From: an uncultured virus (IMG/VR IMGVR_UViG_3300023198_000928)
Taxonomy: Duplodnaviria > Heunggongvirae > Uroviricota > Caudoviricetes
IMG/VR virus record: IMGVR_UViG_3300023198_000928
DNA length: 64,000 nt
Reading direction: 5' to 3' (one strand)
Under the pieces are notes generated by a model. It ran no database searches. It worked only from the letters and a program-made list of their open reading frames with translations, and had not been told where the DNA came from. Below, one piece after another: positions 2,819 through 58,505 of the stretch. Made by a program: the position numbers and the translations under genes. The stretch's first letter is position 1; every line of letters starts with the position of its first letter.

Positions 2819-3249
2819 AAACAATAATAGAATTACCTAACAGATTTCAAGGAAGAGCGTCTACTAAAGGCTTCAAATTCATGAAGATGCAGGAGAATGA
2901 ATGCGCTGCATTATTTAAAGTGTATACAGGTGATGCATATCATTACGAAGTATTTAAGAAAAAGCTTGAGAAAGTTTGCACTGATTTTGAAAATAGAATT
3001 TATGATGAGGATCAGTTAAAAGTTAAATACCCAAATGATAATGCTTTCGGTAACTGGGCTTGGACATGTATTGATAGAGCTGAGGCCGTGATTAAATTTA
3101 TTAAACTAACAGCTAAAATTACTAATAAAGCAATAGAAGACGAGTATAGTTTAGAATGCCTACATTTATGTCAAGAAGCAGAAGGTACAGGAATAGAGGA
3201 CATATGTGCAGATGGATGTATGTATTTTAATCCGAATACTAAGAAATGA
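2815..3249 (+). CDS. hypothetical protein
   Basis: 144-aa ORF with YPNDNAFGNWAW motif; ATGA overlaps on both sides. Confidence 0.75.
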   Translation: MKTIIELPNRFQGRASTKGFKFMKMQENECAALFKVYTGDAYHYEVFKKKLEKVCTDFENRIYDEDQLKVKYPNDNAFGNWAWTCIDRAEAVIKFIKLTAKITNKAIEDEYSLECLHLCQEAEGTGIEDICADGCMYFNPNTKK

Positions 3250-31394: not shown

Positions 31395-31441
31395 AAGAGG
31401 GACATTTCGCATTAATTTGTGATTTGTCCCTCTTTTTTTTT
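31395..31441 (+). terminator. intrinsic terminator at the convergence of the two arms (possibly bidirectional)
   Basis: AAGAGGGACA...TGTCCCTCTT 10-bp outer stem with inner TCGCA/TGTGA stem, followed by a T-run that touches the stop codon of the - strand gene. Confidence 0.85.
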
Positions 31442-34400
31442 AATCCTCTTGGAATATACTAGAAGTCATAAGTGTGATAGACTTATAAGGACCGCTAAGT
31501 TTTTTACCTACATTATGTAATGCTGTCATATAATCTTCAGCTGATACCTCATCTCCTGATATCAAAGCTTTAGGAGCTATCAGAGATACATCTACTATCG
31601 ATTTTACTGCTCCGGAAGCAATAGAAGCAGATATAAGCATAGAAGAATTTCCTGTAAGCACATCTGTTAAAGACTTCATTAAAAATACGTCACCAGTGGC
31701 CATCATCCATCTGTCGTAAGCTAATCTCGCAGCTTCATTACTTCTGCTCTCATCATCGAGACCGTAATTGAATATACCCCATGCCGCTGCTGAAAGAGTA
31801 CCCCATACAATCAGATCTCCAAATAAAGTACTGATATTTTTCTTCTGCTTATCATTAAGAGTACCTTTTTGGAATACAGCAAATTTATGCTCTGCAGCCT
31901 GTCTGGCCATAGATTGAATAGTGTATACAATACCTTCAGTAGGCTCTCCCTCAAAGCTCATACGATATCCGTGCTCAGCATCAGGGTCCTCTACTCTCTT
32001 AAGTCTAGACACAGATCTATTCTCATCAGCTGTCATAGGTTTTTGAAAATATCTAGGAATTTTAGCAAATAGCCATGTTCTCATTTTAGATAGAAAGCTC
32101 ATCCAAGTATAATAAGTGGCTAATGATTTCGAAGATTCATCTAATGAAGAATAAACCTCTACTATCATCTCTTTTATATAATTAGCTTCATATCCTGTCC
32201 ATGCTCTTTTAAGTTTTCTTTTCTCAATTTCATCATTAAAAGTTCCTGTCAAGCCATTTCTCTGATTAGCCATCTCTTCTTTAGTAGCCGCGTACATTTT
32301 TTTAGCTTTAATCTTTTCATCTGCATTATGTTTAGAATCAAAAAATCTTTTATCCTTTTTCTCATCATATTGTAAATTACCATTTTCATCTAAAGAATGT
32401 GCTTCAAAAGAACCCTGCTCCATCATATATGCTAGCATTGTTATTCTTTGCCAATTTTCTAACATCATTTTATTTGCAATCATTAAATGTCTACTTTGAA
32501 ATAAAGACTTTTTCTCTAATTGGTTTAATAACTGTTTTAAATTTTTAGTATCTGAATTAGTAATACCATATACTCTATCAATAGCATACATTAAATCCTT
32601 TTCTTTTTTAGTCCCTACAGTCACTAGCTTAAATGCTTTAGTGTAGCTAGCAAGGCTAAACTCACGTTGACCATTAAACATCACTCCATATAATTTATCT
32701 CCTATATAGTTAGAAGCTGTAACCATTGGATTAGTAAATGTCTCTAGCAATGCTTGACTAACTGTACCGGCGATAGCTGCATGTGTAGCAAACTTATTCA
32801 ATACTTTAATTCCTGTAGATCTCTCGTCACTTTCTTTATGATTAATCACACGGCGTTGTATTAGAGTAAGAGTATCAATTAAATGGTGATATGAAACTCC
32901 TCCACTGATACCTTCAAACCTTTTTATATTATAAAACATTGCTCTACCAAAGGACGACACATCTCTATAATGGTGAGAATCTAACGCTGCAATAGCAAAA
33001 TTATCTAGTACATTTTCAAGGTTATCCTCTATACGGTCTAGTGGTTTATTTTCAGCACCCTCTACCTCCTGGCCTTGCTGATCTATACCTAAGATTTTAC
33101 GTCTAGCAAATGTAAAGTTGTCCTTAATGGAATCAGAGTCCTTAGTATATTGAGCTATAAATTTACTCTCAACAGAGAATTCATTATCTACAGTATTCTC
33201 TTTTAAATCAAAGAAAGTAGTATCTAATCTCATCTTAGAAAAAGTATCTTTAAATTGTTTATGAAATGAAGTATCTTGTCTATAACTCATATGAGATTTA
33301 GGCATTAAAGGCATCCATCCTTCTTTCATAAATGGTTTTTTAAATGAAGAAAGTACGGAGAATTTTTTAAATGATCTTTCTGCAAAAGCTAAATAATCTT
33401 TCTCTGCTTGAGCTAAACTATGATGATTAGAAGGTTTTAATCTAAACGCTGTAGCTCTCTTTGTATTATCATTTTGATAAAGATTTTTAAATATTACTTT
33501 TCCACTTGAAGAAAAATAGTCTATTACACCACTTCCACCATAATAATCTTTTAAAGCTGTTAAATATTTAGTATGCTCATTTTTATATGTAAGGTAATCT
33601 TCATTAATATTTCTAGAACTATCTAAAATTTTTCTATTGAAAGACCCTTGATACATATTACTAGACTTTGATGTAGCTACTAAAAAATTATTAGCAAACG
33701 TAGTGTTTTTAGGACTAGTAGTATAATTAAATCCATGTAAGTACATTATAATATTATCTGTTAAGGCCCATAAATCACTATTAATTCTTGAATCTACAGT
33801 CGCATATACATTCTCTGTTAATGAAATTCTAAAATCATGTAATCTTTCTAATAAGGCTTCTTTATTTTTATGATCTCCATAATTATCTACAATGTCCTTC
33901 AATAATTTCTGACGTTTTCGTGCTGTTTTATTACCTATAGCGAATAATTCTCCTGTTCTCACTAAATCACTTTGAGACATATTTAAATACTCTCCTAAAG
34001 AAGTAATAGGATTATTCATATAAGATTTAGTCTCAAATAATTTAGGATCTTTTAATAAAGCCTCTATTTCTGGAGCTAATTTTTCCCCCGCCAATTTCAT
34101 TTGTTGTAACATAATCTTAGTCATAGCTAGTACACTACTCACATCATGTGGTTGAGGTAAGCTATTTTTAGCAAATTCAGAATTAGACACTACCATACTA
34201 ACTTGGAAATTCTTATCTAATTTTTTCTGTAAGGCCATCATAATCCCAGCCTTAATCAATCTCATATTATAATTAGTATTTTCCCAAACAGTTGTCGGAC
34301 TTAATGACTTAGCCATTTTAGTACTTATATAATTACCAAAAATATTTCCTCTATTATCTCCTTCAAATTTTAATCTACGTTCTCTATCATGATTTAATAT

Positions 34401-37400
34401 TATCATTCTAGTCTCTCCCGTGATTTTATTTTTAAGCATAGATACTCCACTAAATTCCAAACCTAACGAAGCATTAGAAGACATTTTTATAAATTCATAA
34501 CTATTAGAATCAGTTCCATCAAGAAGTGCTCTCATTGCATATCCTTTATCCCTTGATTTTAATATTGAGTCTTGAGTTGATGAATCTCTATCTAGCTCAT
34601 AGAACACTTTTTCAAGGTCCGCTTCTACGTTTCTAATATCTCTACGATCTTTTAGTAATCCTTTTATATAGGCAATAGATGAATCTTTATCATGGATATG
34701 TCCAGGCAAAGTTACTTTTACAAATCCTGCAAGAGTTACTCTTAGGCCATTTCCACCTTTCTTTCTAGATTTCATACCTAATTGATCTAACACCTTATCG
34801 TACATTGCATTTCCACTACTGCTTTTTCTAGTAGCATTTATTGCATTTTCATAAATTGTTCGTGCCTCTTCATCTAGGTTATCCTTTATATCAATATTAT
34901 GATTTCCTGAAGCTTTATAAATAGTGTCCATTGTAGCTGATGCTGCAGATTCAGTACTTAACAGAGATGACTGTACGCCTTCTTTTTTGAAATGAACTAA
35001 TAATTCTGCCGATACATCTGTAACCCCTTTAGAGACAATAGTTGTAGGCTGATATAATAATTTATCATCATGATCTAATACATCTTCTACTTTATATGAC
35101 CCATCTGGTTGTTTTACATCTACAGATTTACCGCCAACAGGACCGTGTAATATATTTTCTACATAGAATATTGAGCTAGGACCTGACTCTATACCAAGTT
35201 CCATTAGAAGAATTTTATATAGAGATGTTTGAATACTAGCTTTCATTTTAGAATTATCGCTATATGATGACATAACTCCTTCCATTCTAACTCCAGCGTT
35301 ATAATCCCACCATAATACCTTTCCAGTTTCTTTAGTTTTATAATCAAAGATATGAGCCTTTCCATTTCCATCCACTACAATTAAATCAATCGTACCGGCG
35401 ACTCCAAATGTTTTACTACCTAATTTTACTTCAGGCATAATTACTATAGGCCCTGGTAAATCTTTAATTTTCTTAACTACGCTCTCTTTAACTAGCTTTA
35501 AAAAATCTCTTGCATAAGCTAAGTTCTTATCTTCCATAGCTTTAAGTAAGAAATCAAAACTCTCTACGAAATCATTATATTCTGGGCTACCTTTCTTATC
35601 AGCGATTTTATCTAAAAAATTAGTTTGAATATAAGAAGAAAAGACATCTCGCCCTTTAGTCATCTCATTAATAATACTCTCAGAAAAATGTAGGTAACCT
35701 CCTTGTTTTTTAGATTTACCACCAACAGCATCACTATTAGCAAAATTAAGTGCTCTAAAATAAAATTCAGCTAAATTATGTAAATATGTCCCTTCATTGG
35801 TTTTAAATTCAAATATTTTCTTTAAATCTTTTTTATTCTTTTTAAATGTACCGCCGGAATACCCTGAAATATACTTTCCTTTCATCCAAGCAACACTTTC
35901 TTCCAGTAACTTTTCTTCTATTTCTATAGGTGTTCCTTTTAAAGTCTTTTTTCTGGCATCTGTAAAATTTTTCCATGCTTTACGAGCTGCATAATCATCA
36001 GCATTTCCTTCATTACTGAAATTAGTAGTTAAGAAATGAGTAGTTCTATCTAATAATTCTCCATCTACTATATAATTAGCCTCATCTTCAGTTAATTTAA
36101 CTCCTTTTGAACTTTTTCTAATTATATCAGCTGTAGTAATTGCTTTATTGGTAACTGAGTATAAAGCAATAGCTTCATTTTTAAACATATTTAAATAGCC
36201 TTCAGCCTTGTTCAATAGCATGTTATTTGTTAATATATTTCTAGGAGTATCCCAATCTTTTAATTCATATGTAGCGGAAGAATCTAGCTTACCATCTATA
36301 TTGTATCTATTTCCTTTACCATCTGTTAAAATAATTACTCCAGGTCGAATAGATCTAATGAAGTTTCTAGCCATTAATCCATTAAATAAATCTCTTGATG
36401 TTGATTTAGGAATGAAAAAGTTCTTTAGATTCTCTAAATTCTCTACTGAAATATTATCATATAATGGACTTGGGTTATTATCATATGAGAACCTAGCAGC
36501 AATATTAAACATATCTGAAATAGTAGAATTCAAATTAAATCCTGCCTCATAAGATTTTATAGTAGTATTATTAGTAAGATTTATTAAAAATGATTCTGTA
36601 AATTCTGAAACAGTTTCTCCTATATCTATATAATCTTCTTCTATCTTAGCATCGATTATTTTAGCAGCTTTCATTCCTATAGAATCTACAAATACTTCTT
36701 CAGCAATATCATCCTTACTGAACTCTATTGCTCCTAATCCATATACTTGAGCATAATCAAGCATCTTTTGAGGATATTCTTCTTTAATTTTATTTAGAAG
36801 AGCACCATGAGCTGTAGGATTATTATTCTTTAACCATTTCATATAAAAATGCCCGAACTCGTGAAACATTGTTCCCGAATCAAATTTATTTATATTCAAT
36901 ATTATCTCATCATTAAGTATAAATCCTTTCTTAGTAGAGAATGACCTGCCGTAGGTTTGTTGTATCTCCGCTGAGCTTAACATACTTACATTTAAATTAG
37001 GTACTACTCGTTTAAATACCTTAATAATTTTATTTGCTATATCGAATTTCGCTGCGTTACTAGGAGTTTTTATCTTATTAAACGTCTTACGTTCATCCTC
37101 AGATAAATAAGCATTCAAAAATAGAGATGATTCATCTATTTCGGATACATTAGTAAGAATATTATCCTGCATCTCAGTACCTATAATATGATCGACGGAA
37201 TTTGTAACCTTTACAATATTTGGGCCCAGTCTATAGTCAGATATATGACTAACATCAGTGCCTGGAGACTTTAAATTTTTATTATATCTGCTGACAGCTT
37301 TAGAAACTATTTCAGGATCGATCCCTGAAGAGAATGCTACGTCAAATCCTCTATGTAAGGCTGATATGATAAGAAATTCTAATCCTTCATTATACATATC

Positions 37401-37937
37401 CATTTCTTCATTAGCATATCCTTGACCGTCAGATTTAGTAGGACTTTTTTCAAACAATTTAGATACAACTTTTCTTGCATCCTTTATTTCTTTATCCCCA
37501 ATTACTATAAAATCATGATTCTTAATATTAGTAAGTGACTTCACATCTCTGGTTTCTGCAATAATTTTAGTGCTATTTGAAGGATATTCACTTAATAATT
37601 TACTCTTATTCTTAGTAAAATAATTTTCTGATATACCTTTAAATAAATTAGCTCCGGATCTACCTAGTTTGTCTAATACCTCTTTATCAGTGATATTAAT
37701 ATTCTTTAATCCTTGTGTAGTTGTTTTTTTATTATTTGAAAAAATATAGCTTGCTCCTTTACTAAATACATCAGTATTAGCATCTAACTTAGCTGAATTA
37801 GGAGTTCTAGTATTCTGTTCAAAAGTAGATACTTTAGTAGTAGTATCTGATAATTGAGCTATACTTTTAGCACCGTATTTAGATACTAATCTAGGGTTTA
37901 TCCCACTATTTACTTTAATTGCTACACTACACTTCAT
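31440..37937 (-). CDS. giant putative virion cargo protein with zincin and PD-(D/E)XK nuclease domains
   Basis: HEFGH...EE (36849-36863); GTYLH...PEVKL...AGTIDLIVVD...IFDYKT...QTSLY; hydrophobic helices near the C-terminus; adjacent to the RNAP gene. Confidence 0.8.
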   Translation of the reverse strand: MKCSVAIKVNSGINPRLVSKYGAKSIAQLSDTTTKVSTFEQNTRTPNSAKLDANTDVFSKGASYIFSNNKKTTTQGLKNINITDKEVLDKLGRSGANLFKGISENYFTKNKSKLLSEYPSNSTKIIAETRDVKSLTNIKNHDFIVIGDKEIKDARKVVSKLFEKSPTKSDGQGYANEEMDMYNEGLEFLIISALHRGFDVAFSSGIDPEIVSKAVSRYNKNLKSPGTDVSHISDYRLGPNIVKVTNSVDHIIGTEMQDNILTNVSEIDESSLFLNAYLSEDERKTFNKIKTPSNAAKFDIANKIIKVFKRVVPNLNVSMLSSAEIQQTYGRSFSTKKGFILNDEIILNINKFDSGTMFHEFGHFYMKWLKNNNPTAHGALLNKIKEEYPQKMLDYAQVYGLGAIEFSKDDIAEEVFVDSIGMKAAKIIDAKIEEDYIDIGETVSEFTESFLINLTNNTTIKSYEAGFNLNSTISDMFNIAARFSYDNNPSPLYDNISVENLENLKNFFIPKSTSRDLFNGLMARNFIRSIRPGVIILTDGKGNRYNIDGKLDSSATYELKDWDTPRNILTNNMLLNKAEGYLNMFKNEAIALYSVTNKAITTADIIRKSSKGVKLTEDEANYIVDGELLDRTTHFLTTNFSNEGNADDYAARKAWKNFTDARKKTLKGTPIEIEEKLLEESVAWMKGKYISGYSGGTFKKNKKDLKKIFEFKTNEGTYLHNLAEFYFRALNFANSDAVGGKSKKQGGYLHFSESIINEMTKGRDVFSSYIQTNFLDKIADKKGSPEYNDFVESFDFLLKAMEDKNLAYARDFLKLVKESVVKKIKDLPGPIVIMPEVKLGSKTFGVAGTIDLIVVDGNGKAHIFDYKTKETGKVLWWDYNAGVRMEGVMSSYSDNSKMKASIQTSLYKILLMELGIESGPSSIFYVENILHGPVGGKSVDVKQPDGSYKVEDVLDHDDKLLYQPTTIVSKGVTDVSAELLVHFKKEGVQSSLLSTESAASATMDTIYKASGNHNIDIKDNLDEEARTIYENAINATRKSSSGNAMYDKVLDQLGMKSRKKGGNGLRVTLAGFVKVTLPGHIHDKDSSIAYIKGLLKDRRDIRNVEADLEKVFYELDRDSSTQDSILKSRDKGYAMRALLDGTDSNSYEFIKMSSNASLGLEFSGVSMLKNKITGETRMIILNHDRERRLKFEGDNRGNIFGNYISTKMAKSLSPTTVWENTNYNMRLIKAGIMMALQKKLDKNFQVSMVVSNSEFAKNSLPQPHDVSSVLAMTKIMLQQMKLAGEKLAPEIEALLKDPKLFETKSYMNNPITSLGEYLNMSQSDLVRTGELFAIGNKTARKRQKLLKDIVDNYGDHKNKEALLERLHDFRISLTENVYATVDSRINSDLWALTDNIIMYLHGFNYTTSPKNTTFANNFLVATSKSSNMYQGSFNRKILDSSRNINEDYLTYKNEHTKYLTALKDYYGGSGVIDYFSSSGKVIFKNLYQNDNTKRATAFRLKPSNHHSLAQAEKDYLAFAERSFKKFSVLSSFKKPFMKEGWMPLMPKSHMSYRQDTSFHKQFKDTFSKMRLDTTFFDLKENTVDNEFSVESKFIAQYTKDSDSIKDNFTFARRKILGIDQQGQEVEGAENKPLDRIEDNLENVLDNFAIAALDSHHYRDVSSFGRAMFYNIKRFEGISGGVSYHHLIDTLTLIQRRVINHKESDERSTGIKVLNKFATHAAIAGTVSQALLETFTNPMVTASNYIGDKLYGVMFNGQREFSLASYTKAFKLVTVGTKKEKDLMYAIDRVYGITNSDTKNLKQLLNQLEKKSLFQSRHLMIANKMMLENWQRITMLAYMMEQGSFEAHSLDENGNLQYDEKKDKRFFDSKHNADEKIKAKKMYAATKEEMANQRNGLTGTFNDEIEKRKLKRAWTGYEANYIKEMIVEVYSSLDESSKSLATYYTWMSFLSKMRTWLFAKIPRYFQKPMTADENRSVSRLKRVEDPDAEHGYRMSFEGEPTEGIVYTIQSMARQAAEHKFAVFQKGTLNDKQKKNISTLFGDLIVWGTLSAAAWGIFNYGLDDESRSNEAARLAYDRWMMATGDVFLMKSLTDVLTGNSSMLISASIASGAVKSIVDVSLIAPKALISGDEVSAEDYMTALHNVGKKLSGPYKSITLMTSSIFQED

Positions 37938-37952
37938 AATTTAATTTTTATT

Positions 37953-40900
37953 TTAACAAACTTTATCAACCCAATCTGAGTCCTTTAATGAGGTAACTAC
38001 TGATTTCAATGTATTATTATATTCCCCTTCAGATACATTAAGTTGAACTCCCGTATCTCCTAGAACAAGCTTTCCTGCTTTTGCTACAACATATCCTAGT
38101 TCTTTAGTTTTAGTAGGAAACTCAACTACCATTGAATAATCTTTAAATAAATTTCCACTATTACCCACTTTGTATACAATTGTATCCAATTCTCGTCCTT
38201 TAACTTTTATCTTACTGACCGCATGTTTTTGATTAATGAACCCTTTTCTAAGTAATTTACTATTAACAAGAATATTAGATTGAGAAGATCCTTCTTTTCC
38301 TAATCCTTTAACTACCAATTGTGGTCTCTTATTAACTGTTTTAACTTCTAAATGAGCTTCTTCAAATTTAGTTAAAGAATTCATAAGTATCTTAACATTC
38401 TTTTTATTTCTAGTAATATCTATTCGTTCTAATCCTCCTGGAGTTGTTGTAATATTAAATGCAAAAGTGTCGTTGAAAAATGTTCCTTTATTTTCTCCAG
38501 CTTTTCTAGATACACCTAACTTTTTTAATAAATTATTAAATACATCCATTCCTCCAACAGTCGCTTGTTCAGTCTCACTACTTAAGCCATTATTTAAAAT
38601 ACCATAGAATATTGCTTCATCATCCATGTTATCTATTGTATTAATAATATTAACTATCTGTTGTTGCATATCAGTGAACGAGGTTGTATTTAAAGGATTA
38701 TTATCTTTAGTAACTCCTACTTTAAATGCTGGTATAAGAATTCTTCTTGAACCTGCCTGAGCTGGATGTATATTCTTAGCGTCGTGATATTTTTTATAAG
38801 AGTCATCTACAGACCATTTATCACTGATATTTTTCACTTTTATTATAACATCTGCTGCACCATCTATAACAGGGGCCTCCAAACTAATTATAGGATCTTC
38901 TAACATGGCTTTCTTATCATTATCAAATATAGTACTTATTTTTTTAGATACTTGAACATCCATAGAGACTGTTTCAAATTGATCATTTAAGAAATTCATC
39001 ACTTTCTCATTTTCAAGCATTCCCACATTATATAATCTATGTCTTCTTAAATTACGCCCACTAATATTTTGAATTAAATGACCTTTTAAGAATAAAGTAG
39101 GATTTTGAGCCATAAGAACTGCTCCAGGAATAGCTATTAAAGATCCTTTATATAATACCATATACTTTTCATATCTAATATTTTTAAAAGCTTCAGTATC
39201 TTTAGTGGTAGAAATTTTTGATTTACCTACATAAGCTAATATTCTTACATCTTCACCTCCATAATCAGCAGTAAAACCTACTTGTTTACCCATCTTTCTT
39301 AAATCTTCCTGTAAATTTTTTGGTACATAAGCAAAAGCATCATCCTCTATAATTTCAGCTATAGTAGTAACAGGTAAAGCCTCATTAGCATAAGCATCAA
39401 AAATTCTAAATGCAGGCAATGTAGGAGCTGTACCAAAAAATAATTCTCTCTCCATTAATTTAGCCGGTAATTTATATACCTGTCCTCTTGTATGGGTAGA
39501 AGTAATTTGTGGTTTAGTAATACTTTTATCTAATAGTAATTTTGCTCTAGAATATGACTTAAGATCCTCTTGATCCTCATTACTTCTCTCACCAAGTAAA
39601 TTCATAGCCTCCTGTAAACTTTCTTTATCATCTACATCATACTGCTCTGCAATGTCTACACCATGATCCTCAGCACCGGCCTTAGCTCGTTTACGTTTTC
39701 CTATCAATTCATGAGTAGCTCTAGTTTTCACATTATTAGTGATTATATCTTTAGATACATCAGTTTCAGGTATAAATTTATTATAATCCTCATTAGATAA
39801 AGTATCTAAGAAAATACCAAGAGATTCATTTACTTCAGTGAATAATTCTATCATTGAACCTTTTTTTATTTCTCCATTACTTACAATTAAAGCATAAGAA
39901 CTTAAATTTTTATAAAGCTCTCTCTTTAAATTATCAAGTTTAGTCAGTCTTTCTACATCTTCTAACTTACCTTCTTTTCTTAACTGATCTAATCTAGATT
40001 TAGGAGTAACAGTTTTTAATTCTTCTATACCTTGATGTATTACCGCCGCTTCTATTTTATCAACATTAGCGTGTTTTAGTTTAGGTATAGATAATATAGG
40101 GTCAGTAGATAAGAATGATCTGGTAAAAACCATAGAATCTAATGCAGCATTGCTATATGACCCACCTTTAAACTCTTTATATAATCTAATCTGTTGAGTT
40201 AAGTAAGGTCCAAAATTTTTCACAAACTCAGCTCTATCATCAGGAAATGCTAGATTTACTTCAGAATAAGAATAGTTATTAACACCTTCTTGTTCTACTA
40301 CAGTTCCACTTCTGGTTTTACCATCCTGACCTTTTTGTTGTAAGAATTTTTCAATTTTTAATCTATTTACATAAGAATTTGCTCCTTTATACGCTTTTTC
40401 TGTTTTATTATCTTTACCAGTTATAGCCTTTAATATTGCATTAGTTTTAAATAAATGAGGCATTCTATACTTCTCAGTTTCATATACACTTTTAAATAAT
40501 GCTCTAGATTGAGGGTGTAAAAATATCATTACATCAGGATCAAACACTTTACGAGCAGCTCTCTCCCTAAAGCCCGCTTCTTTAGATTTAGGTTTTTGTG
40601 CTTTTTCTTTCTCAGCTAGTCTTAGTAATATATTTGGATTAACTCCTTTTCCTTTAGCATCATCAAGAATTATAGCTTGGTATAAGGCATCAGCATCTAA
40701 ATTTCCAAGAATCTTATCAAGTTTAAATGACTCAATTTCTGAATTTTCATTTAAGCTTCTTAATGCTCTAAATTTATTAATCGAATCGCTAATATCTAAG
40801 ATCTTTTTTAAACTTGTAATAGCGTCCTGATTACTATCAGCAGGATATTTAATCTTTAACTTTTTAATACTAGATGTAGTTAAATAAGTAGTTTCTAATC

Positions 40901-49001: not shown

Positions 49002-49010
49002 CTTTATATT

Positions 49011-52000
49011 TTATAAGTAACATTTCTTTTTATTCTTTAGAGCATCCTCTAAAACAGTTTTATTTGCAAGCTCTTCAGCGGTTTCATAAGAGTATCCCAT
49101 CATTTCAATGAATCCCTCTATAAACTCATCAGATTGTACATCATGATCAGGTCCCATATCTTCTATATAAGGAGCTAATTCTAATACATAAGCTTCAGTT
49201 TGTTCTATATCTATAGGACCGTAGTTAATATACAAATTATTAACCATATTATAGTAAGCATTTTGAGATTCTAATGTAGAAGCCTCTTCATCAATACGAG
49301 GAATAGATTCTGCTGCATTTTGTCTTACAAGAGCTAATCTATTAACTATTGCTTTTTTATAATTATTCATATAATCTACAAAAGGCTGTCTATCAGTATC
49401 TTTTTCAGCTATTACAGCTTCGATAGCTTCTGTTATTTCTTTTAATTCATTAGGTAATTCCTCTGTAACAAGAAGGTACAATCTCTGTGGAGAATATTCA
49501 CCATTTGCATAATTAGTAAATGTCTCCATAACTGGAACTGAATATTTATCCGTTGATTTTTCAGCTTCAGATTTAGCTTTATCGAAATAATTAGGATTCG
49601 ATTTAATATCTTCTAGTATAGAATCAGCAGTATGATATCCATATGAAGTTACTACCAATGTTGGCGTCTTCATATCAGTTGCTGTAGTCTTCAATATATT
49701 AGGATACTTTTTAATAAATATATCATGAATTTTTCCTGCATTTAAAGTATTAGAATCATTCATCATAATGCTCGGCTTAACTTTAAAGTTAGCAACTTCT
49801 GCAGCTTCTTGAAAGTTCTTCAAAAATCCTGGAGTACCTTTTTCCAACATATCATTAATATTAATTACATATACCTCATATCCTTTAGGCCTATGAAAGA
49901 ACATTGAAGAAGGATATTGATTATTCTCTGAAAGTTTATTTTGAACCTCATCTCCGAAAGCATATGAAAAATCTTCTATTAATTTAGAAACTGTACCATT
50001 CTTTAATCGAGTAAGTACATCTTCTACATTTTTTCTCATTTCAGCATTATCCCCTATATAATTATTCGCATCAGTTACTAATCTATCTCCAAATGCAGCT
50101 AAATTAGGTCCTATATCAATAGTTCTTTTTTGTGTTTTTGCAGTGAAAGTCTTTTTGCCCTCTACTTGTAGGAAAGCCCCAAATTTAAGCTGTAATGCTA
50201 GTGAAAACCAAGATGGGAATTCTCCAAATTTAACTGCAGGATTTTCATCTTTAATTTTCTTAAGTGTCAAGAATTCTGGAATTAGATGTACTCCTACAAT
50301 TCCAAGAGCGGAATCTATAGTACCTGAATCATCGACTATATCTCTACCGGCATTTAAATCTTCACCACTTTTTATTTTCTTAGTTATTTCACTATTACTC
50401 ATATTCTTACTACTATCTTGAGAATAAAATGTAAATAACTCTCCACTTACAGTATTTCCAGCTCTTCTAGAAACTAATCCACTTTCTCTTTTAGTACTTG
50501 CAAATATTGTAGGGACTAATTTAATTCCTTTTGACATTAACTGATCAACAGTAAGTCCAGTATCTTTACTATAACCACTTTCACCACTTCTAGCTATAAG
50601 GTGCTTTTTAAAGTCTTCTCCAAGAGAGATATCTAGCACACTATACTTATTCGCCTTATTAGTATTTCTAGGATCTCTGGCTAAATCTCCTCCTTTTTTA
50701 ATAAATTTTTTCACCTCTGCAGTAGCTTTTTTACTAACTATTTGAGGACCAATTATAGTATCTCCTCTAGCATTAGTAAATGTAAGTACAGCAATAGTGA
50801 ATGGAGCTTTTTTAGTTTTTACGGATAAAAATCTTACCCCGACTTCATCTACCTTAAATTTATTACCCTCAGAAAAATTAAATAATTTCAAAGCTTCCTC
50901 AGTTTCTACTAATGGATAAGGTTCTCCTCCTTCAAAATTTGCAGTAAGTGCTTGCTTAGCATTGGCAAATAAGTTTTCATTGGTTCCTGTAATCATATGA
51001 GTACCACCAGTCTCGTTATTTCTTCTTTTAATAAAATCTTCTATTGTTCCCTTTATTTGTCCATCAATAGTATTCCCAATATTTTTAAATCCTCTAACTC
51101 CTACTTTATTAGGATTTTGTACATTTCCGTTATTATCAGCTTTATAGAAAACTTTATTGAATAACTCTTTAAGCTCTAAGATATCTCCCCACTCTTCTCC
51201 AAATAAAGCACCACCATTCTCAGAACTATTAATTTTAGCAATAAGTTCCTTGTCTAACGATACTATAGCTGCTCTAATTTTAGTTTCACTTGAAGAATCT
51301 ACTTTAGAGCCCATATATCCTTCTACACCTAATTTTACCAATAATTGATTTAATCTTGCATTTGGTTCAGTTTCTATATTATCATCATGATCATCATCTC
51401 GTGTTCTATTCTTAGCCTCTCGCAATAAAGCAGCCGTACGAGCCTTATTAGTAATTCTTTTAAGTTCTTTTATTGCAGACTCAGCTGTATACTTATCAAA
51501 TATAGGTGCCAATATATCTTTAAACCCATCTACGGTACCTTGATCAGCTTTATTAAGATTATTAATAATAGTAGTTAACTCAGATGAATCAAAATCTTTT
51601 ATCCTTGTTTCATAAACTCCAAATAATGGATCAGTATCTCCCTTATTAAACTCAGCACGTTGAGTTAATTTAGTATTTTTAATATATGCTTGTAGTCCTA
51701 TTACAGAATTGAATGCATTAGTAATAGCATCCTTTTCACCTTTATCTAAATTATTTATAATATCGTAATCAACATATGTAGAATCTCCTTCTCCTTCTTC
51801 AGCTTCTTCTCTAGTCTCTTCAGTTTCTTCATCCTCTTCTATAGATTCTTCAGCCCTTTTTTGTTCGGCTAATTTTATGCTATCAAGTATTAGTCTTTCT
51901 TTTAACGCTAATTCACCAGGAGTATCAATATCAGGCCCTGATTTCTTAAACATATCTAGTAACAGATTGTCGTACACATTAGCATTCTTTCCTGTAAGTG

Positions 52001-55000
52001 TTTCTGTTACAGATTCTACTAATTCCTCAACTGTTATTTTAGACCCTTTTATATTACCGGCTAACATAGGTAAAGTAAGTTCTGTCATCCTTGAAGCTGT
52101 TCTAATCATTACTGTAGAAAGCTTTAACATATCTGTTCTATCTTGGGCCTCAGTAGATGACACATCATTAAACATAGCAACTATTTCCTCCAATTGATTT
52201 ATAATACTAACATCAAGGCTAGTAGCTAAGTTATTTATAATATCTTCAAGATTTTCTAGTATAGTATTTCTAGCATCTGTATTAGCAAGATCTGAGGTAA
52301 GAATACCTTGAGCTTCAGTTAAGAAACTACCATATAATGCTTGCTCAGCCTCATTCATATTAGCAAATATATCAACAACAGTAGGAGGATAAAAAGCACC
52401 TCCAGTAACGTCTGTAAACTTAGATATTAAATTATTATATTTAACTGCCGGATCAGTTGTTAAAGTTATAGAAGATAGCCCATCTACAGGTTTTTCAGCT
52501 ACTACTTCTTCTGCAGCTTCAATACCCTCGAACATCTCTAAATAGTTTTCTCTAACTTTCTGTTTTGCTGCAGAATCTAATTTAGAACTAGGTAAAATAA
52601 CCTGATTTTTAGGCATTTTCTTAGCCTTATTTCCGTCTGGAATATTTATATCCTCACTTTTAACTACTATATGTACGAAATCAAATGCTCTAGTAAGCGC
52701 TGTATTTAATGCTTTTGAAGTTGCTTCTAAACCATTTAATGTTTGTTCTTTTACTACACCAAAAGGATGTTTAGGCATTTCTGCAAATACATAGTTTGCT
52801 TCTGAACCACCTATTTCTGAAAAAGGAAGTACTGTAAAAAATTCACTATAGCCCTCTTCTTCCATTAATTGTTGCATAGCTGTATTCCCTTGTTCAAACT
52901 GTGCTTGAGACTCTGGGGCAATCAATACATTAAATGTTTCAGGTATCGCGTCTTCCGCTAAATTCTTATTTACTGCAATAGTCTTATCTATATTATTTTT
53001 AATATTTGCAATTATTGTTGCATCATTTAGGATAGAATCAAACTCCTTACTAGAATCTTCCTCACTGGCTTTAATAATATTCGCACCATAGTATTTTCCA
53101 TTAGCTTCTCCATATTTCATACCTTTTTCAATAGTAATATCCAATGAATAAGTATCTGGAGATAAAGATTTTTCCATAGTTGCAATACTATCAACTAGAT
53201 AACTATTTCTAGCTCTAAAAGAGTAATCTAAATATGATAATGAAAATACTTGAGTAAGATCTACTGAGCCATCTAAAGGCACCCCATTAATTACAGATAC
53301 TTTTCCAGATTGACTAGGATCACCCATTAATATTAGTGAAATCGGATTTAAAGGATTACCGTACTTAGCATTAAAATCAGTTAATAAATTATCTATATTT
53401 TTAAGTTGTGGTGTACCCTTATTGTCACTAACTCTTGCATCTATATATGTAGCCTCATCTATAACTATTGCACTTGTTGTCAATAATTTTTCTCTTGCAA
53501 CATTTACACCATCTTCATCAGTAAGGTCACTCCTCATAGCCTCTTTAAGTAAATTTTCTAAATCATCTACTTCTAGACCTCCTGCAAATTCTCCTGCCAT
53601 ATCTCCAATAGACTTATCTATAATCTTTACTTGAGACTCGTTATTTGATACAGGAATAATAGATAAATTTTTAATTCCTCTATCTGCAAGAATTTCAGTA
53701 CCTATCTTCATACCAGCGTTAATAACGGCAGTAGATTTTCCTGATCCACCCATACCTATTACGAAAGTAGCTTTTATAGCATGATCTGGATTTTGAGATA
53801 AATAACTATCAACATTAGCTTTATATAGTGGTGAGAATACATAAGCTGCGGCATATTTAGCAGTATGCTCTTGAGCAGCTAATAATACTGTATCACTAGA
53901 TTTTGCATTCTCCATATCCCTTTTCAATTTAGCATAAAAAGGAGTAAAGTCTGTAGTAATAGCACCTAACATAATTGCAGCTGCTCTAATTTCTCTAGAG
54001 GTTTTTGCTTTATTTTTAGTTAATGAAGTATATTTATCTATAAAAAGATTCTTTATATACTCATCAATATCTGCTAATAGATCATCTTTTTCGTAATCTA
54101 TGGCTTCAATAGCGTCAGGAAGATCTTCAGGGTTTCCATTATAAATTTCAAATAATGCATTCTCTATCGCTATATTTAAAGCACCTAAATCTGTACTTGC
54201 TATATTATCAGCATCATCATAAATCTCTTCGAAATCATCAATCTTAGATGCTACTACTTCTTTAAGATATCTATAATTAGGGTCTTCTAATAAATCTCTA
54301 TAGATCGAGTATGTTTCCTCTATCTCAGCTGTCTTGAAACTAGTATATGGAAGATGGGAAGCACTTTTATCTACCACCTTCATTAATTCTTTCGCTTTTT
54401 TTAATACCCATTTAGAAGCAGTTAACGCCAACATTCCTTCCATTCTTAATCTAGAACTACCTTCGTCATTCTTTCCAATTACACTATTTGGTACAATAAT
54501 ATATTCACTTTTTAATACTTTAGTAAAAGCAACGTAGTCATCTAAATTAGCTAGTTGTCGAAGTCCTGAATCAGGAGAGTCAAAGAAATCAAATAACGCT
54601 TTTTCATCTGGCTTATAAATAGAAACTTCTCCAGTTGAAAGATCAAGTGCTGTTCCTCCTAAAAGATCTCTAGTGTATTTATATTTTTCAGTGATTAGTT
54701 TATCATCTTCAGTAAGTAGCCTCTCATCCATATCTAGAATTTCGTCTAATTTTATAGGATCATATAAGAAGTCTACAAAAAAATCTGAAGTATAAGTATA
54801 ATCTTTATATGCATGAACTTCTTGCTCAGTATCTGAAATTTCTCCAGGCTGATATTCAAAATCTATTATATCAATAACATTCTTTCTTAAAGAAGACATC
54901 ATTGTTACTCTATGTCTTAAAGTCCAGTCTTTTAATAAGTCCCCTATAGCCTCTTTTATTTCTATTTGATCAAGGATAGAATCAGTTTGTTTATAATCAT

Positions 55001-58000
55001 GTTTAGTTATTTGGTTTCCCATAGTACTATTAACTAAATCATTTATTTCTGAAATACCTAAGTCTACTAAATCTATAGGTAATAATTCTCCAGTAGCTGT
55101 AGCTCCTTTAAATAATGATCTAATATCTCTAGTTAATCCAATACTATTAGGATCAAATGATATATTTTTAGTGTTAGCATCATTAACCGCTCTTTTAAAA
55201 TTATTTACATATCCAGGAATTATATTTAAAGCATTTGAAGTTATAGGAGCATCCGTAGAGCCTTGTAACTTATCTAGAAATTTTTTCCCTACACTCTCTA
55301 CTCTTCCTTCTTCATCTAATATTGGTATATAAGCATTTTTAATATCCTTTCTAATTGAATTAAAGAATCTAATCATTTCACTGTCTTCAATTAAAGAATC
55401 TTGTAAATATTCATTCATTAATGCATTACCATTCTCTGATTCATGTTTAATGATTTCTCTATAAACTGCAAACATAGACTCATTAGTAGCCACTCCATTA
55501 GCTGGATTTATTTCAAATACTGAATTAGGGTTTTTAATATCAAATAAATCAGCTGCATCATCTAAATTTATGTCGCCATATAATTTATTCATCTTATCAA
55601 CCACTTTTTTGCTTATAAACCCAGTATTATCTTTATAAATTTTATGAAGTTCATTTAATTCTGCTTCAGATGTTCCCTCAATAGCGTCAACTTTTGTCTC
55701 AATCTCAGAAGCTTTTAGTATTCTAAATTCATTTTGTCTAGCATCTTCTAATGCTCTGAACCTCATCTGAAAAAGTTGATCTTTAAGTGGAGTATCTCCT
55801 AAATGCTCGTATTTTTTATCTCTATTATATTTGCTACCTAAAATAGTATTATCATAAGTTTCATTCTGCATTAAGTAATACTCTGAAGCGGAACCATTTG
55901 CAACAGCTCTAATTTTTCTATAGATATTAAACATATTACCTACATCCTCTTTAGTCACTTTGTCAGATAACTTTACTTCTGCTTCTAAACGTGCTAATAA
56001 AGAATCTTGATCTTCAGTCTCAACTTGACTATCTACCTTAGGAGTTTTACTAATAGTTTGATCATCTGTTACAGCAGTATTAGATTTATTTTGAATATCT
56101 ATCTTAGCTTTTAAATCTTTTATTTGTTTATGTTTTCTATCTAGCTCAACCTCAAACTTTTTAAACTCTTCCGGAATTCTATCATTAACTTCTTCCTCAT
56201 TAAGCTGATCCATTTCACTATATACAGCTAAAGAAATTCCTGTTTTATTATGTAATTCTATCAAGCTTCCCATTAAATTGGAGAAATCTTTTCTTATAGA
56301 ATTATTATTTACATATTCCTTTAATTGATCGCTATCACGCATCCTTAATGTAGCTTGCCCAAACATCCCTCTATGCATAAAAGTATCTATAACATTGATA
56401 TCATGTAGATAAGTATTATACACCATATCACTAAGGCTCTCCATATCTTCTCCTTGAACTAAAGGCTCAAACATCTCCTCTACTTTATTATAATCAGTGC
56501 TTAAATTATTTGGACCTAACTCTCCATTAGTCTTCATTTCTTTAAGTACATCAACAAGCTCTTCTTTTTTACCAGCCATTAAAATATCTGTTACAGAACT
56601 TGTATTAGTTATAGGATTTAAAGCAACCTTATTTCCAACCATACCCATAGGACCACCAATAGCACCAGCAACTCCTGAAGTAGCGTATCTTTCTACAGCA
56701 TCTTCAAAATACCCAGGATCAAATATCGACATATATCTTCCCTTACCTGCTTCGATGGCATTATTCATAAGGTATCCATAAGCAGATGCAACTTGTTTTA
56801 CTCCATCTTGGAATAATTCTTCAGTCATCTCTTCTAGACCCTCTTGTCTAGCTGCATACATCCATTGCTTAGGAGGAAGTTGCTTAGTAAATTTTCCAAA
56901 TACATTGCTAACAGCTTTATGAGCTCCTTTATATGCGGCCAGGGCTTTTTGCTCCATTGTTTTCTTACTGGCGGCTGTTCCTGCAGCTGTTGCTTTATTT
57001 GTTATTTTATCGAATGCTGTTTTTATACCTGTTTGTTGTTCGTTTGTTATAGCTTTTTTAATACTTTCTCGTACAGCTTTAGCCTCATAATCTCCAAATA
57101 TATAAGATGCATATTTAGTAGCTTTCCACATAGCAATACCCATAGCTCCAGTAATCATAGAAGCTTCAGTAGTAGTATAACCATTCTCTAATGCCTCATT
57201 ATATGAATCTTTCACGGCCAATGCTGTCAGAGTACCACGTACTGCGATTTCCGCCGCTCTTTTCTCTGCTTGAGCTAATGCTTTACCCGTCAAGCCTTTA
57301 TTAACAATACTAGGAATAGATCTACCTGCCTTACCTAAGGCTCCTGCCATGGCTACTTGTAGGGCTACATCAGCTGTAGTAGATAAGGCTGCTTCCAGAC
57401 TCCCAAAGAATCCGTCTTGTATAGCCTCCCTAGTCATTGATGTATTATATTGCTTAGCCTGTATACCTTTAGTTGTAAGCCATTTATATGCCTCACTAGA
57501 CTCTACCGTTAAATCATCATTTGAAAGTTTGCTTGTAATACCATATGCGCCTGCTATCGCCGCTCTAGATAATTGAATAGATGTATCTAGCATATTAACA
57601 GCCATATTGATAGGTGCCTTAACTAAAATCTTAGCATAATCAAGTACACTATCCGCTTCAAGTTTATTATTTTTAAGTACTCCATCTAATATACTACCGG
57701 TTTCAATATCCCATTTAGAGACTACTTGATCATTTCTTACATCTACCTCACTACCTGTAGCTTCGTCTAATACTTTACCATCATATATAGCATTAAAATA
57801 AAGGCCATTAACTCCTTCATTAGGATCTAAGTTATAAAAAGCATCAGAATAAGCTAATCCACCAAATGAAGGATCTGATTCCTCTAACGCTTTAAGTGCT
57901 TCAGGAGAGTAATCAATAGTTTCATATGAATGACTACCATCTGCATCAGTCTTTCTAATTTTAATTTCTGAAAAGTTTTCTCTGTAATCTTTAGTAGGAT

Positions 58001-58505
58001 TAGACCAATCTAGACCTTGCATTACAGTTCCGGCCATGTTAGTAAATCTCATAGTAGCATCAGCTCTAAGAGAAGATAGATCATCTCGTACTAATTCATA
58101 TCCAGATACTGATTTTTCATAATTCCCTAATTGAAATTGAGAATATTCCTTTTTACTATTATTATAGTCTTGTTCAAATTTATACTCAGCATCAGAACCA
58201 TACCTAGTAGAATAAGCTTTTTGAATATCTTCATCTTTCCAGTATTCTTCTTTAGACTTGAAATCATTAAATCCTCCAGCACCATATAACTCCATTAAGT
58301 TATCAGTACTAAGAGCAGGTTGTTTCATCCTAGTTAAGAAATAATCCTCCTTATCTCCAGATAAATCTTTTGAAGTGGATTCTTCTATCTGACTACCATC
58401 AATACCTCCGTTATCTACTTCTTTAGACAGCGCCTGTGATTGAGGACTAGTTACTATATTCTCTCCCTGTTCTACTTTTTCTATGGTATCTGTATTATTT
58501 GCCAT
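49011..58505 (-). CDS. giant putative virion cargo protein with central SF1 helicase domain
   Basis: GMGGSGKST, IVIDEAT, LMGDPSQ, SFRA, GGSEANYV, NTALTRA; Ala/Gly-rich hydrophobic N-terminal region. Confidence 0.8.
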   Translation of the reverse strand: MANNTDTIEKVEQGENIVTSPQSQALSKEVDNGGIDGSQIEESTSKDLSGDKEDYFLTRMKQPALSTDNLMELYGAGGFNDFKSKEEYWKDEDIQKAYSTRYGSDAEYKFEQDYNNSKKEYSQFQLGNYEKSVSGYELVRDDLSSLRADATMRFTNMAGTVMQGLDWSNPTKDYRENFSEIKIRKTDADGSHSYETIDYSPEALKALEESDPSFGGLAYSDAFYNLDPNEGVNGLYFNAIYDGKVLDEATGSEVDVRNDQVVSKWDIETGSILDGVLKNNKLEADSVLDYAKILVKAPINMAVNMLDTSIQLSRAAIAGAYGITSKLSNDDLTVESSEAYKWLTTKGIQAKQYNTSMTREAIQDGFFGSLEAALSTTADVALQVAMAGALGKAGRSIPSIVNKGLTGKALAQAEKRAAEIAVRGTLTALAVKDSYNEALENGYTTTEASMITGAMGIAMWKATKYASYIFGDYEAKAVRESIKKAITNEQQTGIKTAFDKITNKATAAGTAASKKTMEQKALAAYKGAHKAVSNVFGKFTKQLPPKQWMYAARQEGLEEMTEELFQDGVKQVASAYGYLMNNAIEAGKGRYMSIFDPGYFEDAVERYATSGVAGAIGGPMGMVGNKVALNPITNTSSVTDILMAGKKEELVDVLKEMKTNGELGPNNLSTDYNKVEEMFEPLVQGEDMESLSDMVYNTYLHDINVIDTFMHRGMFGQATLRMRDSDQLKEYVNNNSIRKDFSNLMGSLIELHNKTGISLAVYSEMDQLNEEEVNDRIPEEFKKFEVELDRKHKQIKDLKAKIDIQNKSNTAVTDDQTISKTPKVDSQVETEDQDSLLARLEAEVKLSDKVTKEDVGNMFNIYRKIRAVANGSASEYYLMQNETYDNTILGSKYNRDKKYEHLGDTPLKDQLFQMRFRALEDARQNEFRILKASEIETKVDAIEGTSEAELNELHKIYKDNTGFISKKVVDKMNKLYGDINLDDAADLFDIKNPNSVFEINPANGVATNESMFAVYREIIKHESENGNALMNEYLQDSLIEDSEMIRFFNSIRKDIKNAYIPILDEEGRVESVGKKFLDKLQGSTDAPITSNALNIIPGYVNNFKRAVNDANTKNISFDPNSIGLTRDIRSLFKGATATGELLPIDLVDLGISEINDLVNSTMGNQITKHDYKQTDSILDQIEIKEAIGDLLKDWTLRHRVTMMSSLRKNVIDIIDFEYQPGEISDTEQEVHAYKDYTYTSDFFVDFLYDPIKLDEILDMDERLLTEDDKLITEKYKYTRDLLGGTALDLSTGEVSIYKPDEKALFDFFDSPDSGLRQLANLDDYVAFTKVLKSEYIIVPNSVIGKNDEGSSRLRMEGMLALTASKWVLKKAKELMKVVDKSASHLPYTSFKTAEIEETYSIYRDLLEDPNYRYLKEVVASKIDDFEEIYDDADNIASTDLGALNIAIENALFEIYNGNPEDLPDAIEAIDYEKDDLLADIDEYIKNLFIDKYTSLTKNKAKTSREIRAAAIMLGAITTDFTPFYAKLKRDMENAKSSDTVLLAAQEHTAKYAAAYVFSPLYKANVDSYLSQNPDHAIKATFVIGMGGSGKSTAVINAGMKIGTEILADRGIKNLSIIPVSNNESQVKIIDKSIGDMAGEFAGGLEVDDLENLLKEAMRSDLTDEDGVNVAREKLLTTSAIVIDEATYIDARVSDNKGTPQLKNIDNLLTDFNAKYGNPLNPISLILMGDPSQSGKVSVINGVPLDGSVDLTQVFSLSYLDYSFRARNSYLVDSIATMEKSLSPDTYSLDITIEKGMKYGEANGKYYGANIIKASEEDSSKEFDSILNDATIIANIKNNIDKTIAVNKNLAEDAIPETFNVLIAPESQAQFEQGNTAMQQLMEEEGYSEFFTVLPFSEIGGSEANYVFAEMPKHPFGVVKEQTLNGLEATSKALNTALTRAFDFVHIVVKSEDINIPDGNKAKKMPKNQVILPSSKLDSAAKQKVRENYLEMFEGIEAAEEVVAEKPVDGLSSITLTTDPAVKYNNLISKFTDVTGGAFYPPTVVDIFANMNEAEQALYGSFLTEAQGILTSDLANTDARNTILENLEDIINNLATSLDVSIINQLEEIVAMFNDVSSTEAQDRTDMLKLSTVMIRTASRMTELTLPMLAGNIKGSKITVEELVESVTETLTGKNANVYDNLLLDMFKKSGPDIDTPGELALKERLILDSIKLAEQKRAEESIEEDEETEETREEAEEGEGDSTYVDYDIINNLDKGEKDAITNAFNSVIGLQAYIKNTKLTQRAEFNKGDTDPLFGVYETRIKDFDSSELTTIINNLNKADQGTVDGFKDILAPIFDKYTAESAIKELKRITNKARTAALLREAKNRTRDDDHDDNIETEPNARLNQLLVKLGVEGYMGSKVDSSSETKIRAAIVSLDKELIAKINSSENGGALFGEEWGDILELKELFNKVFYKADNNGNVQNPNKVGVRGFKNIGNTIDGQIKGTIEDFIKRRNNETGGTHMITGTNENLFANAKQALTANFEGGEPYPLVETEEALKLFNFSEGNKFKVDEVGVRFLSVKTKKAPFTIAVLTFTNARGDTIIGPQIVSKKATAEVKKFIKKGGDLARDPRNTNKANKYSVLDISLGEDFKKHLIARSGESGYSKDTGLTVDQLMSKGIKLVPTIFASTKRESGLVSRRAGNTVSGELFTFYSQDSSKNMSNSEITKKIKSGEDLNAGRDIVDDSGTIDSALGIVGVHLIPEFLTLKKIKDENPAVKFGEFPSWFSLALQLKFGAFLQVEGKKTFTAKTQKRTIDIGPNLAAFGDRLVTDANNYIGDNAEMRKNVEDVLTRLKNGTVSKLIEDFSYAFGDEVQNKLSENNQYPSSMFFHRPKGYEVYVININDMLEKGTPGFLKNFQEAAEVANFKVKPSIMMNDSNTLNAGKIHDIFIKKYPNILKTTATDMKTPTLVVTSYGYHTADSILEDIKSNPNYFDKAKSEAEKSTDKYSVPVMETFTNYANGEYSPQRLYLLVTEELPNELKEITEAIEAVIAEKDTDRQPFVDYMNNYKKAIVNRLALVRQNAAESIPRIDEEASTLESQNAYYNMVNNLYINYGPIDIEQTEAYVLELAPYIEDMGPDHDVQSDEFIEGFIEMMGYSYETAEELANKTVLEDALKNKKKCYL

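Follow-up and report, generated by a model that had tools for sequence, protein, structure and literature searches.

Conserved cysteines at the facing ends of giant crAss-like phage cargo proteins suggest a head-to-tail linked chain

Why would three giant proteins encoded side by side contain, over 9011 residues, only four cysteines (Cys), each placed at an end that faces a neighboring protein? This question is raised by a 64,000-nucleotide stretch of DNA from an uncultured virus of the Caudoviricetes (IMG/VR record IMGVR_UViG_3300023198_000928; the whole stretch is hereafter called the window), which carries on its minus strand three large genes, denoted A, B, and C in their order of transcription. 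Gene A (49011..58505) encodes a putative P-loop nucleoside triphosphatase (NTPase)/helicase-like giant cargo protein of 3164 residues (351.9 kDa) with a sole Cys at position 3162; gene B (37953..49001) a 3682-residue protein (414.3 kDa) predicted to be homologous to crAss-type two-barrel virion RNA polymerases, with Cys at positions 5 and 3682 only; and gene C (31440..37937) a 2165-residue protein (244.5 kDa) that combines an HExxH motif of the zincin type with a PD-(D/E)XK-like region and has its sole Cys at position 3. Upon translating and counting, we found the four Cys (0.04% of all residues) to occupy the third residue from the C-terminus of A (...KKKCYL; codon 49020..49022), the fifth residue of B (MKDGC; 48987..48989), the final residue of B (...DKVC; 37956..37958), and the third residue of C (MKC; 37929..37931), while the two outer ends, namely the N-terminus of A and the C-terminus of C, were Cys-free. 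The open reading frame (ORF) coordinates and the four codons given in a first-pass annotation of this DNA, which had pointed out that all four Cys lie at neighbor-facing termini, were correct.

The resulting pattern was confirmed to be both conserved and strongly non-random. If four Cys were placed uniformly over 9011 positions, they would all fall at most five residues from the four inner termini with a probability of 2.4e-11. In a control set of 271 ORFs of 100-999 residues, drawn from the window and from the phage loci that we fetched, the overall Cys content was 1.09%, and Cys occurred in the first eight residues of 5 ORFs and in the last four residues of 9. Compared to this control, A, B, and C display the near-absence of Cys that characterizes Cys-suppressed ejected phage proteins; the plus-strand genes of the window mostly contain 0.4-2% Cys (extremes, 0 and 6%). 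The spacers between the genes are short, with 9 nucleotides (AATATAAAG; 49002..49010) separating A from B, which is in frame with A past a single TAA, and 15 nucleotides (37938..37952) separating B from C, including a second in-frame TAA.

Relatives of all three proteins retained the pattern. The A relatives share 28-44% identity by BLASTP (except one, matched locally at 23% across 9% of the query) and 21-39% across the alignment, and a Cys stood 1-4 residues before the C-terminus in 13 of 13 of them, as an invariant column, and was the sole Cys in 12 of these proteins of ~2900-3250 residues. Among 21 C relatives, 19 carried Cys3 (Cys5 in one), which was the sole Cys in 14; the other two, P0022 and P0023, start with MTVEQFGAK and MTVEKYGAK, respectively, and align at about residue 17 of the remaining 19, such that their starts were probably mis-called. 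All four close B proteins, the one from the window included, contained two Cys and no more, one at position 4-5 and the other at the final or penultimate residue. The outward-facing ends, by contrast, lacked Cys throughout (0/13 A N-termini and 0/21 C C-termini). A metagenome scan yielded one related locus of 14.8 kb (L001), in which the A homologue ends in ...KRCNF and the B homologue starts with MANC, each Cys again being the only one in its ORF. The A/B junction of this locus is out of frame, unlike that in the window, where A, B, and C share one reading frame; given this and the extra stop in the B/C spacer, the common frame is probably a coincidence.

To sample B more widely, we searched its core with phmmer against 1.84 billion representatives and added the four close B proteins, which gave 57 proteins of at least 1800 residues. 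Of these, 47 had a Cys both within the first eight and within the last four residues, 37 of the 47 contained exactly two Cys, and 55 of the 57 had a Cys within the last 10 residues, at an internal Cys frequency of 0.025% (46 in 186,038 residues). In an alignment of 24 B sequences reaching down to 17% identity, Cys3682 was invariant and Cys5 nearly so (at least 90%). The residues flanking the terminal Cys varied, with the N-termini of B and C resembling each other (M-x-K-C-S/T-I/V). Together with the counts for A and C given above, the 47 of 57 B representatives with Cys at both ends bear out the earlier expectation that the terminal Cys would be conserved in homologues.

The same arrangement was found in named crassviruses and a relative, none of whose proteins were retrieved by megablast or tblastn with the window's B. 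In phi14:2, the only Cys of g067 is its last residue, g066 contains only Cys3 and Cys2179, and g065 contains only Cys3. In crAss001, the sole Cys of gp47 is at position -2 (i.e., two residues before the last), gp50 has Cys5, Cys1334, and Cys2404 (-8), and gp49 has Cys5 only; in DAC15, the sole Cys of _61 is at -2, _63 has Cys5, a Cys as its last residue, and three internal ones, and _62 has Cys4 and Cys619. The A-, B-, and C-type proteins of IAS virus likewise obey the terminal-Cys rule, with more internal Cys in the A-type protein. Across the eight named genomes, all 12 junctions that were visible as a whole displayed a facing Cys pair, one of them, in crAss002, requiring a start at Met33. 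There, gp32 ends in ...SFVCS, and the annotated gp33 (L008:17088-17186, MN917146) starts with MVLDYS... and has its first Cys at position 35, while starting at the internal Met33 would give MSCTPSN, like the LMMB orthologue, which begins with MSC; gp33 was thus probably annotated to start 32 codons too early. The trios of phi14:2 (gp67/gp66/gp65) and crAss001 (gp47/gp50/gp49) form the same three-protein set as that of the window, with the polymerase in the middle, its DxDxD motif, and the terminal Cys pattern, while the window trio is ~1.5 times larger (9011 residues versus 5398 in phi14:2 and 6102 in crAss001) and too diverged for tblastn. The crAss001 proteins weigh 262.5 (gp47), 276.9 (gp50), and 154.5 kDa (gp49), ~694 kDa in sum. 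Packaging of the polymerase in the virion and its ejection are known for the phi14:2 and crAss001 relatives alone. The A gene occupies the opposite strand in crAss001, DAC15, and IAS virus; it follows that the protein ends, not the gene neighborhood, carry the rule. Hence, of the proposal that A, B, and C are paired through their Cys in gene order, the facing-end pattern stood, whereas gene order as the determinant of pairing did not. As a separate observation on IAS virus (KJ003983), its polymerase gene appears as two overlapping ORFs of 837 and 2159 residues (L010:15812-24794) with ambiguous bases near the break, which probably reflects poor sequence quality in this unannotated record.

Gene fusions and splits proved informative on how the ends are paired. 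In Fpv1, gp33 (4401 residues) is a fusion of A and B, with a gp66-like part that begins at ~1780-2000, and its single Cys is at -1, followed by a gene that starts with MAC. The A+B fusion of cr50_1 (4774 residues) has no N-terminal Cys and none near the fusion zone at ~1700-1890, ends in ...KECE, and precedes a gene starting with MQC. The order differs in LMMB, where a 1957-residue protein ending in ...SFSCM is followed by a 4070-residue protein that starts with MSC and consists of B plus the C-terminal part of C; this protein has Cys3 and no C-terminal Cys. As neither Fpv1 gp33 nor the cr50_1 fusion has Cys at its fusion point, the prediction that fused orthologues would lose the junction pair held. 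These polyproteins, which the accessible text of the phi14:2 preprint also notes (10.1101/2020.03.07.982082), resemble the window trio in having the same domains in the same order within one chain, and differ from it in that a peptide bond takes the place of a Cys pair, whereas the window has three genes and two Cys pairs. Conversely, relatives with a split B carry new terminal Cys on the new ends. Seven of eight short B forms (2442-2511 residues) align to the window's B out to residues 2534-2609 and have Cys as their last residue, and in the eighth (P0064), the alignment stops at residue 1871 and the Cys is at -2; five separate proteins (1140-1478 residues) align to B residues 2592-3434, start with M[AK]C, and end in Cys. 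The unsplit B of the window contains no Cys at the split point. Each break between proteins is thus flanked by Cys on both sides and fusions have neither, which points to head-to-tail pairing, and, judged from these sequences, such pairing is the only scheme in which each fusion removes, and each split adds, exactly one whole Cys pair. Overall, we observed the Cys positions, their conservation, and the gain and loss of pairs along with gene splits and fusions directly.

A disulfide between facing protein ends of this kind has been seen in an unrelated phage. For cyanophage A4, the accessible text of PMC12002296 describes a disulfide between gp27 Cys1715 and gp26 Cys5 resolved by cryo-electron microscopy, and the gp27 chain is deposited in PDB 9k3a. 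In the record of Anabaena phage A-4L, we found gp27 (1717 residues) to have Cys1715 (-2) as its sole Cys and gp26 (1114 residues) to have Cys5 as its sole Cys. As in the window, these are two large ejection proteins from neighboring genes with sole Cys on their facing ends, and the positions -2 and 5 match those of A (-2) and B (5) as well as the last residue of B and position 3 of C; an upstream Cys near the C-terminus combined with a downstream Cys at about residue 3-5 is present at both the A/B and the B/C junction. None of A, B, and C matched A4 gp26-gp29 by blastp at E <= 0.01, so that the likeness is one of mechanism and not of family. The A4 system, which belongs to the Saffermanviridae, further differs in having one pair only and no RNA polymerase, and in the accessible text of PMC12002296 the bond is described as a detail that stabilizes a folded pentameric ring, with no chain, termini rule, or stand-in for a peptide bond. 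The earlier statement that no description of such a mechanism was known hence did not survive, since the A4 pair is published. For Crassvirales, no description of such a linkage was found in the open-access literature that we searched, and, measured against that literature, a chain of several links built around the polymerase of crassviruses is new, as is the exchange of Cys pairs for peptide bonds and vice versa, while the single A4 pair is known. Another A-4L ejection protein, gp28 (L009:25321-28497), contains only two Cys, in a CxxC at positions 1036 and 1039, ~20 residues from its C-terminus.

From these findings, we consider it probable that the facing terminal Cys form disulfides that join the cargo proteins into a covalent A-B-C chain, in which Cys3162 of A would pair with Cys5 of B, and Cys3682 of B with Cys3 of C. 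We infer the disulfide nature of the link, the time of its formation, its use in threading, and its release by reduction. The bonds might form in the assembled or released virion, giving a polyprotein-like chain of 9011 residues and ~1.01 MDa. The purge of all other Cys would prevent wrong pairings as well as oxidation in the periplasm, and links at the extreme ends would keep the chain nearly linear, such that it could pass the narrow portal and tail channel as a partly unfolded thread, in a fixed order and at a 1:1:1 ratio. Cytoplasmic reductants could then release the three enzymes. What is reported for crAss001 in the accessible part of PMC10172136 may be set beside this proposal: gp47, gp49, and gp50 were identified as virion cargo by mass spectrometry, their exit requires partial unfolding, and its order is likely set by their packing and mutual interactions; the virion has disulfides in the tail and in a gp57 dimer at the portal vertex. 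The word cysteine has 0 occurrences in the main text of that article, and the accessible text of the phi14:2 preprint (10.1101/2020.03.07.982082) mentions neither cysteine nor disulfide.

A number of observations speak against a disulfide-linked, threaded chain. The phage of the window and the crassviruses at large offer no direct evidence of the bond, the particles are assembled in a reducing cytoplasm, and anaerobes are frequent among crassvirus hosts. In addition, the A4 disulfide staples a folded ring inside the capsid, according to the accessible text of PMC12002296, such that a role in threading does not follow from this precedent; a bond that stabilizes the packed cargo, by analogy to the folded ring of A4, is a live alternative role. 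The rule itself has exceptions as well. At one or both ends, the terminal Cys is missing from 10 of the 57 B representatives, most of which look truncated at one end. In locus L001, an in-frame TAA (L001:4975-4977) interrupts the A homologue (...YAME*NGSGGEG...) with no Cys at the break; homology resumes in frame past the TAA and no ATG follows it, and the TAA could be a sequencing error, a pseudogene, a site of read-through, or a true split, the last of which would violate the terminal-Cys rule. Positions are not rigid, as the C-terminal Cys of crAss001 gp50 is at -8 and the nearest one in cr10_1 at -10, and the exclusion of Cys is not absolute, with 13 Cys in the IAS virus B ORFs and 8 in the 4070-residue LMMB protein. 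The short B forms and the separate proteins that cover B residues 2592-3434 were not tied to the same genomes. Finally, a lone C-terminal Cys without a visible partner occurs in an 861-residue LMMB protein (-1) and in crAss002 gp30 (-7), so terminal Cys may also have other partners.

We weighed four other explanations against disulfide pairing. That the facing Cys join the proteins through a shared metal ion or other thiol chemistry, which would fit a reducing or anaerobic setting, seems unlikely. The first-pass annotation had raised a metal clasp next to a disulfide, and sequence alone cannot separate the two bridges; two thiols, however, make a poor metal site, the flanks of the Cys are not conserved, and among the 47 B representatives with both terminal Cys, a His lies within 12 residues of the N-terminus in only two and of the C-terminus in only one. 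The analogous A4 pair is a disulfide, as stated in the accessible text of PMC12002296, and the number of Cys scales with that of the proteins (two for two, four for three, and presumably six with a split B), which also ruled out a single Cys4 metal knot of all four ends. The claim of a disulfide or metal clasp is therefore best narrowed, with the metal clasp the less likely of the two given the scarcity of His near the termini. Somewhat less plausible again is the notion that the terminal Cys individually bind something else, for example the inside of the capsid, the portal, a further cargo protein, or a second copy of the same protein, with the facing arrangement as a mere by-product. It would account for the lone C-terminal Cys in LMMB and crAss002 and for the crAss001 A gene not being adjacent to B, yet it leaves unexplained why the outer ends of A and C never carry a Cys, why fusions drop both Cys together, and why splits go along with a Cys at either new end, and the facing ends of A4 pair directly in the account given in the accessible text of PMC12002296.

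We regard it as improbable that the Cys are processing or targeting signals or relics of ancestral polyprotein cleavage sites that form no link. While the similar N-termini of B and C could be read in this way, cleavage would be required only in the fused forms, which lack Cys where they are joined, the products of separate genes retain the Cys over very deep divergence although they do not have to be cleaved, and the residues around the Cys vary. A lipobox or prenylation-type signal was rejected, with no hydrophobic leader present and a C-terminal spacing of 0 to 4 residues, and so was intein-like or ligation chemistry, with no conserved domain beside the Cys. Chance, or a constraint on the junctions at the level of the DNA through translation coupling or stop-codon read-through into a polyprotein, has next to no credibility in our eyes. 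The common frame of the window ORFs and the spacers of 9 and 15 nucleotides are what such a constraint might produce, but the probability under uniform placement is minute, the pattern recurs where DNA similarity is undetectable and where A is on the other strand, and the exact Cys position and its neighbors vary. For a read-through polyprotein in particular, the two in-frame stops at B/C, the differing frames of A and B in L001, and the crAss001 A gene on the other strand led to its rejection; a DNA motif at the junctions was likewise rejected, owing to the variable Cys positions and flanks and the opposite strand of A in some phages.

Returning to the disulfide-linked chain, we tentatively suggest a broader notion, which may well prove wrong: that a terminal Cys pair is a stand-in for a peptide bond, the two being evolutionarily interchangeable, both in crAss-like phages and, independently, in A4, such that a stapled thread of at least 1 MDa would keep a fixed order, survive the oxidizing periplasm, and be cut by the reducing cytoplasm. 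If true, this would amount to a redox-gated switch for delivery and activation, and lineages could switch freely between a fused gene and split genes whose products are stapled by Cys. In the human gut, crassviruses rank among the most abundant viruses, and the rule bears on how they pack and inject ~0.7-1 MDa of cargo, including the polymerase that starts infection. A Cys pair at every break in the giant cargo and none at fusions would provide a physical model of order and stoichiometry and account for the purge of all other Cys; it moreover helps to correct gene starts, as for crAss002 gp33, and connects crassviruses with the unrelated cyanophage A4, where the bond was seen.

The Schitoviridae, whose virion polymerase is a single-subunit T7-like enzyme and not a two-barrel one, offer a further comparison. 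The accessible text of PMC11445570 reports that N4 gp50 and its relatives, as well as DEV gp71, lack Cys, in line with the earlier remark that ejected proteins such as the N4 virion RNA polymerase are Cys-free, and describes Cys suppression as a conserved trait of the Schitoviridae ejection operon, put down to passage through the oxidizing periplasm. These systems (N4 gp50, DEV gp71-gp73) hence share giant virion RNA polymerases or ejection proteins and near-total Cys suppression with the window, and differ in that no terminal Cys are retained, the few Cys in gp72 homologues being ascribed to likely annotation or sequencing errors in the same portion of PMC11445570.

Which enzymes would such a chain carry? 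For B, the alignment revealed the DxDxD metal-binding motif DLDID at residues 2246-2250 (42252..42266, minus strand), preceded by RIPGQSKQSGF, and this block (RIPGQSKQSGF...GGDLDIDT) aligns with the catalytic block of phi14:2 gp66 (...RIPNQGQSS...GSDFDIDK), the two-barrel polymerase solved in PDB 6vr4, as well as with the polymerases of crAss001 (gp50), DAC15, LMMB, crAss002, and Fpv1. The three aspartates D2246, D2248, and D2250, which mark a crAss-type polymerase, were invariant among the 24 aligned relatives. Pairwise matches were weak: blastp gave 27% identity to phi14:2 gp66 over 262 residues (E 6e-4) and 33% to LMMB over 78 residues (E 1.8e-5) in a tiny database, and crAss002 gp33 matched at 41% over 70 residues. 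With hhalign, the family alignments of A, B, and C against phi14:2 gp65, gp66, and gp67 reached a best probability of 27% (B with gp66), and a single-sequence AlphaFold2 model of B residues 1496-2695 had a mean predicted local distance difference test (pLDDT) score of 34.7, too poor for a fold search. No match to B was obtained in a profile search of the PDB or, by megablast and tblastn, among GenBank phages, and no relative turned up when viral_contigs was scanned with B or with the alignments of C and B; PDB profile searches with A1-A3 gave chance-level matches only, and Pfam and PHROGs had no match for the window's A or B. With A and B unmatched in Pfam, PHROGs, and the GenBank phages, the protein assignments rest on motifs and weak pairwise matches, and these weak but consistent hits suggest that B is homologous to crAss-type two-barrel virion RNA polymerases.

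Protein A contains a Walker A motif (GMGGSGKS) and DE motifs, and AAA/helicase Pfam domains (PF13401/PF13245) were detected in some of its relatives. In C, the HExxH motif (HEFGH, residues 359-363; 36849..36863, minus strand) has H359, E360, and H363 invariant in 21 sequences, as is characteristic of a zincin metalloprotease domain, with no Pfam family matching this region at E <= 0.01; C shares this motif with phi14:2 gp65, for which the accessible text of the preprint 10.1101/2020.03.07.982082 reports a zincin protease. Residues 816-926 of C (35160..35492, minus strand) gave a weak PD-(D/E)XK nuclease match (PF12705, E 0.0027, below the curated cut-off; PHROG 298 exonuclease, E 8.6e-7). Replication genes make up the plus-strand half of the window and converge on gene C, an arrangement shared with phi14:2; this module includes a family A DNA polymerase, a ligase, a helicase, a 5'-3' exonuclease, and an N4 gp49-family protein. 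The layout of cargo trio and replication module points to a divergent crAss-like phage with an enlarged gp67/gp66/gp65 cargo module, and on the sequence evidence we assign the window to such a phage, with A, B, and C as its three giant virion cargo proteins.

Other cargo-like proteins accompany the giant genes. Upstream of A, two ORFs of 751 (58516..60771) and 1026 residues (60838..63918), both on the minus strand, contain 0 Cys and have no Pfam or PHROG match; the 751-residue ORF likely encodes another cargo or virion protein outside the chain. The 861-residue LMMB protein (L005:5576-8161) and crAss002 gp30 (L008:6393-8066; RCGG context) are cargo-like and also lie upstream of the giant genes, and we saw no N-terminal Cys in their neighbors, such that a homodimer or another partner may be involved. 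The N4 gp49-family protein of the window (N4 gp49 / Sf6 gp66 family, PF13876; 29410-29823, plus strand) is encoded ~1.6 kb away from where gene C ends, separated from it by three small ORFs, and members of this family also occur near the polymerase genes of LMMB and crAss002. Further away on the plus strand, a 272-residue protein (15365-16183) with weak matches to sigma-70 region 2 and HTH_16 may be a phage sigma-like factor, and a 224-residue protein (4466-5140) strongly matches a Tad2-like domain (Thoeris anti-defence 2; PF11195, E 1.3e-37).

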